This document shows, piece after piece, positions 11,488 to 15,374 of a DNA stretch of 64,000 nucleotides. Origin of the DNA: an uncultured Planctomycetales bacterium (lineage in GTDB: Bacteria; Planctomycetota; Phycisphaerae; UBA1845; PWPN01); assembly GCA_964548565.1 (NCBI GenBank), contig CAZJTF010000001.1, forward strand, positions 212 through 64,211. Reading direction: 5' to 3'. Position 1 is the first letter of the stretch, and each line of letters starts with the position of its first letter. A program made the position numbers and the translations under genes. The notes below the pieces were generated by a model. That model was not told where the DNA came from and did no database searches. It saw only the letters and a list, made by a program, of their open reading frames with translations.

Positions 11488-11815
11488 ACCGGTGCGGCAC
11501 TTCCCCGGTGGCGGCCGAGTTGAACAGTCAGAAGAATGTTTTAGTACCTCCAGCACTCCGATGCCTTGACTTTGCCCTGCGCGGGTCATAAGAGTCAAAG
11601 CACACGACGTGCAACCTCACCCGACAACTCATCAGCGTACGACACGGTTTTCGAACAGAACGCAGGCCCCCCGGGCTTACTGAGCACCGGCATGCGGGCA
11701 GCACGGCAGTCGGTTCCGCGCGCGGCGGAGAAACTGCATGTGCAAAAAGTCGATTGCACGCGAGCATTGTCGGACTCAGCTCAATTGTCGCGCGAGGCGC
11801 GTTCGTAAGTACGGG

Positions 11816-13288
11816 ATGATGAAGAGGAGACCAGGTATGAACAGGTTTGTGAGGCTAGTGGCTGGAGCCGGCTTGTGCGTCGGACTCTCGTGGACGACCT
11901 CTCTCGCGCAGAGCAGCGGCGGATCGAGCGGGTCCGCGGGTTCGAGCGGCAGTGGCACCTCCGGCGGGACGTCCGGGAGCAGCATGAACCAGAGCAGCGG
12001 CTCCACCAACCGCAACACAGGATCCGACACGAATCGCACGTGGAGCAGCGGCACCAACCGCGATACGTGGGGCAGCAGCAACAATCGTGACACGTGGGGC
12101 ACCAGCGACAACCGCAACACGTGGAGCAGCGGGCGCGATCGTGACAGCTGGAGCGACAGCGATCGTGGCGGCCAGAACCGTTCCCGCTACGGCTCACAAA
12201 GTGACCGGTACTCCGGCACCCAGAACCGCTACAGCCAGAATCGGTATCTGTCCGACGACCGCGACCGGAACTCGGACCGGTTTGGCTCGTCCGGCACGGC
12301 CGACCGTTCGCGCTATGGTTCCAGTCGCACGGGATGGAACCAGGACGACCGCAGCTCGGATCGCTACGGTGACAGCGGGCGCTACGGATCGAGCCGGTAC
12401 GGCGATACATACCGCGACCGCTACGGCTCCGACCGGTTCAACTCGTCCGACGATCGGTATGGCTCGACGTACGACTCGGATCGCTACGACTCCAACCGCT
12501 ACGGTTCCTCTTGGGATCGGTCGGATCGCAGCGACCGCAATATGAGCGGGCGATACGGCTCGTCCTACGGGAGCGACCGTGGCTACTCCGGGCAGGATCG
12601 CGCCGATCGCTACGGATCGAGCACCAGCGACCAGACGTGGCGCAGCTCCCGGACGGATCAGTACCGCGATCTCGCCCGCGATGGCAGCGATCGTGACAGC
12701 GAATTCTGGCGGTCGGGCGAAGACGATCGCTATCGCGACAGGGATTGGCGTGACCGCTACACGTCGGATTCCGACACGTACCGCTACAGTTCGCGGTACG
12801 GCTCCGATCGTTACTCGGATGATCGCGACATGGATCGCAGCCGCAGTACCTACGGCACGCAGGACCGCTACGGCTCCTCGTATGACCGCGACCGCAACTA
12901 CACCAGACGGTACGACAGCTCGGGCACGGGTTACGGCAGCAACCGGACCGGCACGGGAAGCTCGTACGACAGCAACCGGTACGGATCAGGAAGCTCGTAC
13001 AACACGAATCGGTACGGGTCAGGGAGCGCGTACGACAGCAGCCGCTACGGCTCGGGCAGTTCTTACGATCGCTCGGACCGCTCGACCAGCGGGTACCGCA
13101 CGTACGGTTCAGACAAGCGCGACAGCGACTGGAACCGCAGCTACCGATCCAGCGGCGACAACGATAACGACCGGTACGACAACCGTTCGTATCGCAGCAA
13201 TCGCTCGTGGGATTCAGACGACGACACCGGGTCGACCTGGCGGACCTCGCGTTCGCGTACGACCTGGAGCGATAACGATCAGGACTGA
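11816..13288 (+). CDS. secreted low-complexity S/R/D/Y/G/N-rich protein (DRYGSS / NRYGSGSSYD repeats)
   Basis: Signal peptide MMKRRPGMNRFVRLVAGAGLCVGLSWTTSLAQS. The following ~460 aa consist almost only of S, R, D, Y, G, N, T and W, with dozens of [DN]RYG[SD]S units. Followed by an intrinsic terminator. Confidence 0.65.
   Translation: MMKRRPGMNRFVRLVAGAGLCVGLSWTTSLAQSSGGSSGSAGSSGSGTSGGTSGSSMNQSSGSTNRNTGSDTNRTWSSGTNRDTWGSSNNRDTWGTSDNRNTWSSGRDRDSWSDSDRGGQNRSRYGSQSDRYSGTQNRYSQNRYLSDDRDRNSDRFGSSGTADRSRYGSSRTGWNQDDRSSDRYGDSGRYGSSRYGDTYRDRYGSDRFNSSDDRYGSTYDSDRYDSNRYGSSWDRSDRSDRNMSGRYGSSYGSDRGYSGQDRADRYGSSTSDQTWRSSRTDQYRDLARDGSDRDSEFWRSGEDDRYRDRDWRDRYTSDSDTYRYSSRYGSDRYSDDRDMDRSRSTYGTQDRYGSSYDRDRNYTRRYDSSGTGYGSNRTGTGSSYDSNRYGSGSSYNTNRYGSGSAYDSSRYGSGSSYDRSDRSTSGYRTYGSDKRDSDWNRSYRSSGDNDNDRYDNRSYRSNRSWDSDDDTGSTWRTSRSRTTWSDNDQD
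12959..13072 (+). repeat. 33-nt tandem repeat (about 3.4 copies) encoding SSY[DN]xxRYGSG
   Basis: Copy 1 at 12959-12991 is agctcgtacgacagcaaccggtacggatcagga. Copy 2 at 12992-13024 is agctcgtacaacacgaatcggtacgggtcaggg. Copy 3 at 13025-13057 is agcgcgtacgacagcagccgctacggctcgggc. A partial copy follows. Confidence 0.7.
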
Positions 13289-13301
13289 GTGAGCGGCCAC
13301 C

Positions 13302-13344
13302 GGATCCGCCGCCTGCCGTCTGCGGGCGGCGGATCCTTTCTTTC
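13302..13344 (+). terminator. intrinsic terminator
   Basis: Perfect 12-bp stem ggatccgccgcc / ggcggcggatcc with an 11-nt loop, followed by tttctttc. Confidence 0.7.
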
Positions 13345-13367
13345 ACATCCGCGACAGAGGAGAACCC

Positions 13368-15254
13368 ATGAACAGAGTATCTGTGCTGATTGCGGCTGCG
13401 CTGCTCACCGCCGGAACGGCCCTCGCGGCGGACGTCACCGGCGGAACAGACGCCGGTGGTCAAACGGGTGCGACCACGCAGCCCGCGCGATCCACTTCGG
13501 CGACCCAGCCGTCCGTCTCGCTGGCAACGCCTTCCACGTCCGCGCAGCGTCGGGACCGTGAGGCGGGGGACCTGCTCGCCAAAGCGACCGACATCATCGA
13601 TGCCCGCGTGCGGACGCGCGACGGTCAGGACATCGGAGAAGTCAAGGACCTGGGCCTCGACACAGACAACGGGCGCGTCGCCATCGCCGTGGTGGAGCGG
13701 GAGTCCGCAACTTCCGGACAGAAACTCGTGGCCGTCCCGTGGAGCGCGATTCGTCAGACCGGTGCTGGCGAAAACCTCCATTTTACAGTAGACTTCGACG
13801 CCGCGCGCCTCGCCAGCGCCCCGTCGTTCGACAGCGACAACTGGCCGGACCTGTCGGACCCACGATGGCTGCATTCCGCATACCGCGCATTCAATCAACG
13901 CCCGTACTGGGAGCGGGTTACGGACCGTCGGAGCCGCAGCGAGTGGTCGGAGGAGGATCGGACCGAGCGTCGGATGTGGGAGCCGCAGCGGGATCGGAAT
14001 CCACAGCCCTGGCTGCGCGAGGACCCGCGTTTCGACGAACGCCGGCAGACGTACGGCGATCGTTGGGACGATGAGCGCGACTGGCGGGAGCGCCAGCGGA
14101 GCTATGCCCGGCCGGACGAGTGGCAAAACGAGCGCCCGTGGCGTGACAATCGCGGTTCCCGCATGTGGGATGATGACGACCGCCGTTACGACGACTACCA
14201 GGAGCGTCCGCGCTGGTCCGAGCGCTGGGACGAGGTCCGACCCGGCAGCGGGCCGCAAAACTGGCGCGATCGCGACGACCGGTATGATGACCGCTACGAC
14301 CACCGCGGCGACCGCGAGTGGAGCCGCGAGCCCGGCCGGGACCGTTTCTGGCGCGAAGGCCAGAATCCACGCCGCGACGAGTGGCAGGATCGGGAAGGCC
14401 CGGTTTCGCGTGACCGGTATGGATCCGGCCCCGGCAATCGGATGGAGCGGCAGCGTTCGATCCCCAGTTACAACACGCCGGTGATCCGCAAAGCCAGCGA
14501 TGTCATTGGAATCGAGGTGACGAACCCCACCGGGCGGGACCTCGGCGACATCGAGGACCTGATGATCGAGACGCGTGAAGGGCGGATCGCCTACGCGGTG
14601 CTCTCGTTCGGCGGTTTTCTCGGGATCGGCGACAAGCTGTTCGCGATTCCCTGGCAGGCCTTCCAGTCGCGTGAGGCCGGCGAGTCGTTCGTGCTCAACG
14701 TTCCCAAGGCGCGCCTGGAACGGGCCCCTGGCTTCGACAAGGATAACTGGCCCGACATGGCGAGCGCCGACTGGGGGCGTGACATTTACGAGTACTACGG
14801 CTTCGAGCCGGATCTGGTGATCTACAGCTACACCATTTACGGCGAGCCGATCTCCGCCACGCAGCCGTCGGGCGCTGAGGACTCCGGCGACCGCGCGTAC
14901 CAGCGGCGGTTTGACCCGGCCGCCATCGAGACGCTCAGCGGCGAGATCGGGAGCATCACCCGGGCGGCTCCAACACCCGGGGCCTCCCGCGTCGTCATCC
15001 TGAGCGTCCGGACCGACGACGGCCGCACGCGGACCGTCCATCTCGGGCCCCCTGCGTTCGTGCGGAGCCGCCTGCCCGGCCTCGAGACCGGCAAGCGCGT
15101 GACCGTTCGCGGCTCGCGCGTGACGATCGACGGGCGGGAGGTCGTCATGGCAACCGAAGTGACCGAAGGCTCCCGCACGGTGCAGTTCCGACAGGGCGAT
15201 GGCAGCCCGCTGTGGGGCAGCCAGATGGACCGTGCCGGTCGCGGGCGCGAGTAA
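13368..15254 (+). CDS. secreted protein with two PRC-barrel domains separated by an R/D/E/W-rich low-complexity region
   Basis: Signal peptide MNRVSVLIAAALLTAGTALAA. PRC-barrel 1: IIDARVRTRDGQDIGEVKDLGLDTDNGRVAIAVVE..KLVAVPWSAI. PRC-barrel 2: VIGIEVTNPTGRDLGDIEDLMIETREGRIAYAVLSFGGFLGIGDKLFAIPWQAF. The ~200-aa linker reads DRWDDERDWRERQRSYARPDEWQNERPWRDNRG... Confidence 0.75.
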   Translation: MNRVSVLIAAALLTAGTALAADVTGGTDAGGQTGATTQPARSTSATQPSVSLATPSTSAQRRDREAGDLLAKATDIIDARVRTRDGQDIGEVKDLGLDTDNGRVAIAVVERESATSGQKLVAVPWSAIRQTGAGENLHFTVDFDAARLASAPSFDSDNWPDLSDPRWLHSAYRAFNQRPYWERVTDRRSRSEWSEEDRTERRMWEPQRDRNPQPWLREDPRFDERRQTYGDRWDDERDWRERQRSYARPDEWQNERPWRDNRGSRMWDDDDRRYDDYQERPRWSERWDEVRPGSGPQNWRDRDDRYDDRYDHRGDREWSREPGRDRFWREGQNPRRDEWQDREGPVSRDRYGSGPGNRMERQRSIPSYNTPVIRKASDVIGIEVTNPTGRDLGDIEDLMIETREGRIAYAVLSFGGFLGIGDKLFAIPWQAFQSREAGESFVLNVPKARLERAPGFDKDNWPDMASADWGRDIYEYYGFEPDLVIYSYTIYGEPISATQPSGAEDSGDRAYQRRFDPAAIETLSGEIGSITRAAPTPGASRVVILSVRTDDGRTRTVHLGPPAFVRSRLPGLETGKRVTVRGSRVTIDGREVVMATEVTEGSRTVQFRQGDGSPLWGSQMDRAGRGRE

Positions 15255-15329
15255 CCGGCGGCGTGGAGCGGGCATCTGCAGACAGCGGCCCGGCTCACGC
15301 AAGCTCATGCATACCTGTGATTTACGCGC

Positions 15330-15364
15330 GGGGCGGGCCGTCACCTTGACGGGCCGCCCCTTTG
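15330..15364 (+). terminator. intrinsic terminator (imperfect stem)
   Basis: Stem ggggcgggccgt / acgggccgcccc (one mismatch) followed by tttg, downstream of the PRC-barrel gene stop. Confidence 0.5.
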
Positions 15365-15374
15365 CTCAGATAAT
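15346..15374 (+). promoter_or_regulatory. sigma70-like promoter for rplU
   Basis: TTGACG (15346-15351), a 17-nt spacer, then GATAAT (15369-15374). It lies about 100 nt upstream of the rplU start, and the -35 sits inside the upstream terminator hairpin. Confidence 0.4.

Follow-up and report, generated by a model that had tools for sequence, protein, structure and literature searches.

Two neighboring genes of an uncultured Planctomycetales bacterium, at positions 11,816 to 15,254 of a 64,000-nucleotide stretch of its DNA (hereafter the window), encode extremely low-complexity proteins that carry apparent export signals. This locus raises the question of whether the two genes are real, whether they belong together, and what their products might do outside the cytoplasm. 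The window corresponds to C1:212-64211 within a metagenome-assembled genome of 7.35 Mb and 679 contigs (93% complete), and a listing of open reading frames (ORFs) places gene 1 at 11738/11816..13288 and gene 2 at 13368..15254, both on the + strand. We are highly confident of the following joint answer: the two genes are real and co-oriented, with products that appear to be Sec-exported; gene 1 encodes an orphan polyampholyte predicted to be disordered, and gene 2 a member of a PRC-barrel/PRC-barrel/OB-fold family with a linker of like pattern; and the only other carrier keeps the order, the adjacency, and the intergenic hairpin of the pair, together with a third protein.

Both genes are real. 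The GC content at third codon positions (GC3) was 0.80 for gene 1 and 0.81 for gene 2, the adjacent genes showing values of 0.78-0.88, and a sliding three-phase GC profile tracked both + frames along the full length of the two genes. The original prediction had taken both ORFs as real and had named an antisense ORF of 968 aa (12438..15344) as the possible competitor. This antisense ORF was ruled out as the coding frame by a GC3 of 0.67, by zero Pfam matches, and by the lack of conservation of its frame. It is thus highly improbable, and already largely refuted, that gene 1 is merely an open frame generated by repeats or that the antisense ORF codes in its place. GC-rich repeats do readily yield long ORFs on both strands, no homologs of gene 1 beyond repeat noise were found in libraries of 5.8e9 and 1.84e9 proteins, and no protein-collection record was obtained for three candidate starts in an exact look-up that is start-sensitive and cannot settle annotation; however, the GC3 difference comes with a frame signal that is consistent along the gene, the frame has a predicted signal peptide, a GAGGAG site, and a terminator right after its stop, an ortholog is kept in the gene-1 frame only (E = 1e-11), and the antisense ORF would overlap gene 2 with its strong Pfam domains.

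The most likely start of gene 1 is ATG 11837 (MNRF...) rather than 11816, because a GAGGAG ribosome-binding site lies 7 nt upstream of it; a further in-frame ATG is found at 11738. The AGAGGAGA motif is common to the sites upstream of ATG 11837 and of ATG 13368 in gene 2. The signal peptides that had been predicted for the two proteins are recognizable in both, each with a basic N-terminal region, a hydrophobic core, and a candidate cleavage site, and AlphaFold2 predicted a helix at residues 4-15 of gene 2, within the signal peptide. Both products look like proteins exported via Sec-type signal peptides. Between the two genes, a hairpin at 13302-13336 (15 pairs, −37.6 kcal/mol, z = −6.0) is followed by TTTCTTTC, which makes the strong terminator that had been predicted at 13302..13344 convincing as an intrinsic terminator or attenuator.

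We found the pair in one other organism. P0022, an ortholog of gene 2 (675 aa, 44% identity), is encoded on a 2,785-nt ENA metagenome contig (L018) and has the architecture of gene 2 with an R/D/E/W/F/Y linker; it is the only family member sharing the long R/D/E/aromatic linker. Directly 5' of P0022, on the same strand, is an ORF that is open at the contig end and whose product, P0122, ends ...DRYGSDRYDSDRFSRYGSS...SSFWRSGDENRFRDRDWDDY...SSWND*. Gene 1 and P0122 showed 48% identity over 111 aa (E = 2e-12, BLASTP with compositional adjustment), and a MAFFT alignment showed that P0122 is collinear with the C-terminal 240 residues of gene 1, the gaps being extra repeats of the window. In a six-frame comparison of both DNAs, only the gene-1 frame pair was kept (50 bits, E = 1e-11), with all other pairs at 17 bits or lower, and blastn similarity between the two loci was confined to the folded part of gene 2. 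These collinear blocks, conserved in the gene-1 frame only, support the view that gene 1 is under protein-level constraint. L018 also has an intergenic hairpin in the matching position (z = −3.5). The end of P0022 is also covered by L020, a JGI contig of the same organism, which encodes a third secreted protein of low complexity immediately 3' of P0022; in the window its place is filled by rplU, and the L018/L020 organism thus has a three-gene cluster. The check for a homologous pair elsewhere therefore turned up gene order, adjacency, and hairpin kept at 44-48% protein identity, and the presence of the same pair in this other uncultured organism suggests that genes 1 and 2 work together outside the cytoplasm.

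Eight residues make up 94% of the mature gene 1 protein of ~460 aa (S 23, R 16, D 16, G 12, Y 9, T 8, N 6, and W 3%), just as the original prediction had described, and C, H, I, P, and V are all absent. The 'dozens' of [DN]RYG[SD]S units claimed with it were an overstatement, as the exact motif occurs only 4 times, RYG 15 times, an Arg followed by an aromatic residue 28 times, and the loose form [DNS]R[YFW][GDST] 20 times. The 33-nt tandem repeat that had been noticed was found at 12932-13068 with 4.2 copies, and Tandem Repeats Finder detected a second one of 27/54 nt at 12037-12162. The R/D/W core of the protein reads ...FWRSGEDDRYRDRDWRDRY.... No family was matched by gene 1 in Pfam (E <= 0.1) or NCBIfam, LEA profiles included. 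AlphaFold2 gave a mean predicted local distance difference test (pLDDT) score of 34 and zero secondary structure. Because the underlying alignment held only two sequences, this result is consistent with, and not proof of, disorder over the whole length of gene 1.

Gene 2 combines folded domains with such low-complexity sequence; after the signal peptide come a PRC-barrel, an R/D/E/W polyampholyte linker of ~190 aa, a second PRC-barrel, and an OB fold of probable MamS_MamX type. The two PRC-barrels that had been proposed were confirmed by PF05239, which matched two stretches with 88.3 bits in total (cut-off 21.2) and scored 55.7 and 40.8 bits when the whole genome was searched. An AlphaFold2 model from a 16-sequence alignment had pLDDT values of ~90 at each of residues 70-180, 370-480, and 510-615 and values below 50 in the N-terminal spacer, at 188-367, and at 484-504. 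The best Foldseek match of the barrels was 3htr, a PRC-barrel protein from Rhodopseudomonas palustris (42-46% identity, E = 5e-7), and the next ones were CdpB1/2 and reaction-centre H subunits. The last domain matched the OB folds of Stn1, SSB, RPA32, PriB, and the anticodon-binding N-domain of LysRS. The label PF26390 (MamS_MamX) was assigned to P0022 and 14 other family members, and the C-terminus of gene 2 was placed there by alignment; the beta-rich C-terminal domain seen earlier is thus real (pLDDT ~90 at 510-615), and it is best labeled an OB fold, probably of the MamS_MamX type. The linker (aa 182-372) is composed of R 25, D 16, E 11, P 8, and W 7.5%, with 14 Trp, which agrees with the earlier remark that W recurs in it among R, D, and E.

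MamS is predicted to have a YgiW-like OB fold, and its deletion alters crystal size (PMC3905215). The NCBIfam model of MamS (NF040991) matched gene 2 with 15.3 bits (E = 0.016), a weak match but the sole one in the genome, and matched the family member P0025 with E = 4e-7. Because 15 bits compares with an equivalog cut-off of 200 bits, gene 2 is not MamS, an assignment also ruled out by the C-terminal placement of the domain and by the absence of a magnetosome gene context. The C-terminal domain of gene 2 is kin at the profile level to the OB-like domain of MamS/MamX; unlike these proteins, gene 2 has no N-terminal membrane anchor and no magnetochrome, and bears an apparently cleavable signal peptide. 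We regard it as quite improbable that the pair builds an organic matrix that, in the manner of Asp/Ser-rich biomineralization proteins, binds cations or minerals (Ca, Fe, or another metal), with the MamS-like domain acting as in magnetosome crystal maturation. Disordered Asp/Ser-rich sequence, the kinship with MamS/MamX, and the crystal phenotype of the MamS deletion would fit such a matrix, but Arg offsets Asp to leave no net acidic charge, many non-magnetotactic planctomycetes have the MamS_MamX domain, no metal transporter or magnetosome genes are adjacent, and the single match to MamS in the genome is as low as stated above.

Gene 1 and the gene 2 linker follow the same sequence grammar. 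The net charge per residue is +0.004 for mature gene 1 and −0.016 for the linker, the fraction of charged residues 0.33 and 0.51, the grand average of hydropathy −1.99 and −2.49, respectively, and aromatic residues account for 13% of both. In each of them, charge segregation was under that of all 500 shuffles, and the variance of aromatic spacing was 8.9 (48 ± 12 in shuffles) for gene 1 and 12.2 (47 ± 19) for the linker, values as low as these being reached in 0/500 shuffles. Gene 1 has an aromatic residue about every 7 residues, mostly preceded by Arg, and avoids adjacent aromatic pairs (1 observed vs 7.5 expected), whereas RD/DR (z = 5.7) and R-aromatic (z = 6.7) dipeptides are enriched. Gene 1 and the linker are neutral, well-mixed polyampholytes with evenly spaced aromatic stickers. 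Together with the predicted disorder of both low-complexity parts, these features bear out the earlier claim of a composition like that of phase-separating proteins. Eukaryotic sticker-and-spacer domains include the prion-like domains of FUS and hnRNPA1 and RGG domains, besides Arg-rich mixed-charge domains. Evenly spaced aromatics, Arg-aromatic pairs, Gly/Ser spacers, and mixed charges are shared with them by gene 1 and the linker, with no homology; unlike them, the two planctomycete chains are bacterial, apparently exported, and highly charged (0.33-0.51), with Asp instead of Gln/Asn as the chief polar partner. Q and N are minor residues, and the composition is thus not the near-uncharged Q/N/S/G/Y composition of prion-like domains.

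The best reading of the pair that we can offer, if only tentatively, is that of a multivalent hydrogel or condensate outside the cytoplasm, giving hydrophilin-like protection to the envelope under osmotic or drying stress; its mechanism as a whole is one that we infer. After export, gene 1 chains would assemble, either in the periplasm or at the cell surface, into a hydrated multivalent network that is a gel or condensate, held by numerous weak contacts of the Arg-aromatic (cation-pi), aromatic-aromatic, and Arg-Asp types. Gene 2 would enter this network via its matching linker, and its PRC and OB domains would tie the network to an envelope ligand. The intergenic terminator might set the ratio of the two products, giving much scaffold (gene 1) and less anchor (gene 2). 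In osmotic, ionic, or drying stress, such a network could hold water and shield envelope components. This reading is based on the sequence grammar, on the conserved adjacency, on P0102, in which a gene-1-like R/D/Y/S tail (...SRDRYESDVDYRSDSRSRYESDRNRSESYGRERD...DDRYDRDRRYDRSRDDRYAD) is fused to PRC-PRC-OB, on the hydrophilin criteria, and on published work on PRC-barrels in stress and on LbpB; in addition, the genome of the window encodes more secreted R/D/aromatic proteins and a paralog with two PRC-barrels and an RD-repeat tail.

Anabaena needs AvaKa to tolerate dehydration, and the AvaK family consists of a PRC-barrel and a C-terminal DUF2382 (PMC9804601). A PRC-barrel gene also belongs to the EcfG general stress regulon of alphaproteobacteria (PMC6599016). 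These PRC-barrels, which are like those of gene 2, provide the only experimental link of stand-alone PRC-barrel proteins to water or general stress. Unlike AvaK, gene 2 does not match DUF2382 at E <= 0.1, appears to be exported, and has an OB domain and a polyampholyte linker. Hydrophilins are defined by more than 6% Gly and a hydrophilicity index above 1.0, and the bacterial LEA-like protein Zmo0994 has a signal peptide (PMC7448490). Gene 1 (Gly 12.2%, Kyte-Doolittle mean −1.99) lies on the hydrophilin side of both compositional limits and is likewise very hydrophilic and predicted to be disordered, with a signal peptide as in Zmo0994; the linker has a Kyte-Doolittle mean of −2.49 and, at 5.8% Gly, is slightly below the limit. 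In contrast to hydrophilins and LEA-like proteins, gene 1 is rich in Arg/Asp/Tyr/Trp, not Lys/Glu/Ala/Thr, and has no LEA match in Pfam. The anionic domain of LbpB from Moraxella and Neisseria is secreted and of low complexity and forms phase-separated droplets (PMC11022072). Because LbpB had already been described, exported condensate domains of bacteria are not new in general. The LbpB domain is strongly anionic and helical and condenses with cationic host peptides, whereas gene 1 and the linker are neutral polyampholytes of an environmental bacterium. The literature searched contained no description of a conserved exported Arg/Asp/aromatic disordered pair or trio attached to PRC and OB domains.

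Outside the second carrier, the pair is rare, with neither gene turning up in about 680 related genomes. Searches for gene 1 in 40 relatives, two of them congeneric genomes that are 88-91% complete, and in 400 genomes from the class gave no hit. Among 279 genomes searched in the order, none other than that of the window had a gene 2 of the P0022 type at E <= 1e-40. With gene 1 as query, the 5.8e9 proteins yielded only P0121, a marginal repeat match in an unrelated organism; the profile built from gene 1 and P0122 picked out only a spurious RGTWGS-repeat match among 1.84e9 representatives; and the gene 2 linker alone returned nothing at E <= 1. P0121 (L019:3747-4571, +) is a secreted protein of 274 aa with ~30 perfect DRYGS pentapeptides from an unrelated metagenomic organism, and its DRYGS unit looks like convergent use. 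The N-terminal domain of P0121 is common to the adjoining DUF4344 protein (L019:4721-5848).

The folded part of gene 2 belongs to a much wider family. The closest homologs bear planctomycetal names, and the PRC-barrel subtype with a GFDKDNWPD...PYW extension is widespread, occurring in Nitrospira, Acidobacteriota, Pseudomonas, Methanosarcina, and others; when loci were retrieved with a narrower gene 2 alignment, most of them were generic PRC-barrel loci spread over many phyla. Pairing with MamS_MamX is found mainly in planctomycetes and occurs in the orders PRC-PRC-OB, PRC-OB-PRC, and PRC-OB-PRC-OB. The Planctomycetota proteins with PF05239 and PF26390 (for example, P0022, P0025, P0057, and P0074) have the signal peptide, both barrels, the extension, and the OB fold in common with gene 2, at 35-44% identity in the folded parts. 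This family is uncharacterized, and most of its linkers and some of its domain orders are unlike those of gene 2: the linkers are G/S/T-rich in P0025, short in P0057 and P0074, Q/D/R-rich in P0105, and RD-rich in P0078, P0102, and P0110. By sequence comparison, gene 2 is a new linker variant of this existing family, and gene 1 is an orphan with one orthologous fragment. A 40-aa window with at least 50% R plus D/E was present in 61 of the 120 listed PRC homologs; judged from these sequences, mixed-charge segments are a recurrent companion of this PRC-barrel, and the aromatic R/D version is unusual. In Methanosarcina, multi-PRC proteins (P0002-P0014, P0047, P0058, and P0070) have long mixed-charge repeats of the ERLARLERERMEAE and ERLARLERER types, which probably form single alpha-helices or coiled coils. 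In Nitrospira (L101:2177-3811, −, and also L102 and L103), a small stand-alone PRC-barrel gene adjoins a gene for a secreted protein of 470-570 aa that has, as read by eye, a PRC-like segment and a long R/D/Y/N/S/Q tail (...RDRYYEDTP...GYDRYDQNRSRMSRSGDDRQRQYQ...). In two related genomes of Phycisphaerae orders (L009:2426-2887, +; L010:536-1057, −), a helical protein of ~150-170 aa (...DSDKGFQQAAE...IEAERGEDAIKERYE...) is encoded directly after a gene with two PRC-barrels. This protein may resemble the DUF2383/PA2169-type stress proteins.

Several of these observations weigh against a hydrogel or condensate with a role in stress. The pair is conserved in one other organism only, and because two congeneric genomes lack both genes, it is dispensable and patchy. 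The regular spacing of the aromatic residues is due in part to the tandem-repeat origin of the sequence, and highly charged, well-mixed chains can also stay soluble and not condense. Between gene 1 and the gene 2 linker, no homology was detectable beyond composition, and since G/S/T- or Q-rich sequence takes the place of the linker in other family members, the linker of gene 2 may be a mere spacer. Unlike the PRC genes of the EcfG regulon, genes 1 and 2 have no EcfG-type site (GGAAC-N15-18-CGTT) near them, and the count of this motif in the window equals chance. Among 81 ORFs that flank PRC genes of the subfamily, Pfam matches were to PRC (5), BON (2), and otherwise singletons, with no recurrent or stress-related partner. 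Finally, the strong terminator between the two genes is also compatible with independent genes.

A rival reading, which we judge somewhat unlikely, is that the two genes are functionally independent. Gene 1 would then be a lineage-specific repeat protein that evolves fast and has no specific partner, and the gene 2 linker would only serve as a flexible or entropic spacer between folded domains that exert the actual function, as might be expected from the terminator, from the missing homology between gene 1 and the linker, from the congeners without both genes, from family linkers that are freely replaceable (G/S/T-, Q-, or RD-rich), and from mixed-charge segments that are widespread in the PRC subfamily, down to the apparently helical ERLARLERER type of Methanosarcina. 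What speaks for a functional pair instead is that adjacency, order, and hairpin were kept in the only other carrier at 44-48% protein identity despite decayed DNA similarity, that the L018/L020 cluster includes a third protein of similarly odd composition, and that the collinear blocks of gene 1 indicate protein-level constraint.

Another reading, an unlikely one, is a surface adhesive or matrix that would bind polyanions or glycans, such as exopolysaccharide, sulfated algal polysaccharide, extracellular DNA, or peptidoglycan, through Arg and Tyr/Trp, with the OB and PRC domains as specific binders. Both proteins appear to be exported, their R-Y-G and R-W motifs are strongly enriched, and the DRYGS repeats of P0121, in an unrelated secreted protein, suggest a unit that is useful outside cells; the pair presumably also resembles the Arg/Tyr/Gly-rich mussel foot protein 3 (Mfp-3). 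OB folds, to which Foldseek matched the last domain of gene 2, typically bind oligosaccharides or oligonucleotides (PMC3905215). On the other hand, Asp equals Arg and the net charge is near zero, unlike that of cationic adhesives and poorly suited to polyanion binding, no glycan-active or adhesion genes adjoin the pair, and the Pfam search revealed no carbohydrate-binding module.

The most far-reaching version of the hydrogel reading is that the pair and the third protein form a dedicated exported condensate or hydrogel system, in which a sticker-spacer scaffold and a folded anchor would build a phase-separated, water-retaining layer in the planctomycete periplasm or on the cell surface; this version we consider doubtful. 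Phase separation by sequence has been well worked out for intracellular eukaryotic proteins, only a small number of bacterial cases, most of them cytoplasmic, are known, and LbpB, the exported example, has host peptides as its partners. If such a system exists, it would be a bacterial exported counterpart of the condensates formed by eukaryotic low-complexity domains, the scaffold-plus-anchor pair would provide a test of whether bacteria organize their periplasm or surface by condensates or gels, and it would open a route to the ligands of the widespread secreted PRC-barrel and MamS_MamX domains. The pair would also offer a simple natural polyampholyte/aromatic sequence for work on materials or desiccation protection. 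If the two genes are independent, the locus is one more lineage-specific low-complexity protein beside an uncharacterized domain protein. We regard the pair as an interesting, testable lead and not as a discovery.

The genome of the window seems unusually rich in aromatic low-complexity proteins. A secreted protein of 255 aa (C9:7007-7774, +) is R/D/E/Y/W-rich and has numerous RY/YR units and a DDDW... stretch at either end; it had no significant similarity to the third protein of L020, and the two are alike in compositional class. C20:9333-10712 (−) encodes the secreted paralog with two PRC-barrels, which has no OB domain and ends in a tail of RDRD/NRNRD repeats (...DRDLQNRNRDVRDRDRAMQDRDRDLQNRNRDLQDRDRATQDRDRARSD...). 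A G/Y/S/Q-rich, FUS-like protein of 457 aa (C181:11231-12604, +) has a BON-like C-terminal domain as read by eye and apparently no signal peptide, and the C-terminal half of a protein of 148 aa (C121:16228-16674, +) consists almost only of D/Y/W/E/G.

Table 1. Features of the gene pair in the window and of the third gene of the second carrier. Signal peptides, ribosome-binding sites, and terminators are predicted.
Feature	Position	Strand	Basis or remark
Shine-Dalgarno GAGGAG of gene 1	11824..11829	+	7 nt before ATG 11837; sequence reading
Gene 1 signal peptide, MNRFVRLVAGAGLCVGLSWTTSLA|QS	11837..11908	+	basic N-terminus, hydrophobic core, A-x-A-like site (SLA|Q); inferred from sequence
Gene 1 Ser/Gly/Thr-rich spacer (SSGGSSGSAGSSGSGTSGGTSGSS...)	11909..12004	+	translation
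Gene 1 nonapeptides N-R-x-T-W-(G/S)-S-S	12037..12162	+	27/54-nt DNA tandem repeat; Tandem Repeats Finder and translation
Gene 1 degenerate (D/N/S)-R-Y/F-G-(S/D) zone	12164..12631	+	motif counts
Gene 1 core aligning with P0122, includes FWRSGEDDRYRDRDW	12566..12889	+	BLASTP, six-frame comparison, alignment
Gene 1 undecapeptides SSYDSNRYGSG	12932..13068	+	33-nt tandem repeat, 4.2 copies; absent from ortholog P0122
Gene 1 Trp-punctuated D/S/N/R C-terminal tail and stop	13121..13288	+	translation; aligns with P0122 end
Intergenic intrinsic terminator/attenuator	13302..13344	+	15-bp GC-rich hairpin, then TTTCTTTC
Shine-Dalgarno GAGGAG of gene 2	13357..13362	+	5 nt before ATG 13368; sequence reading
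Gene 2 signal peptide, MNRVSVLIAAALLTAGTALA|ADV	13368..13427	+	basic N-terminus, hydrophobic core, ALA|A; inferred from sequence
Gene 2 T/A/S/Q/G-rich N-terminal spacer	13428..13568	+	predicted disordered, pLDDT <50 at residues 15-64
Gene 2 first PRC-barrel and helical extension (..APSFDSDNWPDLSDPRW..PYW)	13569..13907	+	PF05239; pLDDT ~90-96; Foldseek 3htr
Gene 2 R/D/E/W polyampholyte linker	13911..14483	+	191 aa, 14 Trp, net charge ~0, pLDDT 35-50
Gene 2 second PRC-barrel and extension (..APGFDKDNWPDMASADW..YYG)	14484..14810	+	PF05239, AlphaFold2, Foldseek
Gene 2 C-terminal MamS_MamX-type OB-fold domain	14883..15215	+	PF26390 label on ortholog P0022; pLDDT ~90; Foldseek OB folds
GC-rich hairpin 3' of gene 2	15330..15361	+	weak T tract CCCCTTTGCTC; z = −3.7
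Third secreted protein, 239 aa, R/D/Y/W-rich low complexity (MMIRPFRLMHLLCVSAVLLAVPAVAQTYIDDDDWDDDDYYRYRYDSDRRY...)	L020:910-1629	+	immediately 3' of P0022

The pair is flanked by two genes of the YkgJ-type cysteine-cluster family upstream and by rplU and htrA downstream, and these genes give no functional context for it. About 350 nt 5' of gene 1 (11488-11836) contain no convincing ORF, and a promoter-like site (TTGACT-17-TAAGAG) lies near 11567; for these two reasons, the gene 1 transcript may carry a long leader. A second terminator had been predicted downstream of gene 2, at 15330..15364. Its hairpin (15330-15361) stood up to analysis with z = −3.7; the T tract behind it is poor, however, and the site was passed over by the terminator scan. 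A promoter-like sequence of rplU, TTGACG-17-GATAAT, is located at 15346-15374, with its −35 box within this hairpin.

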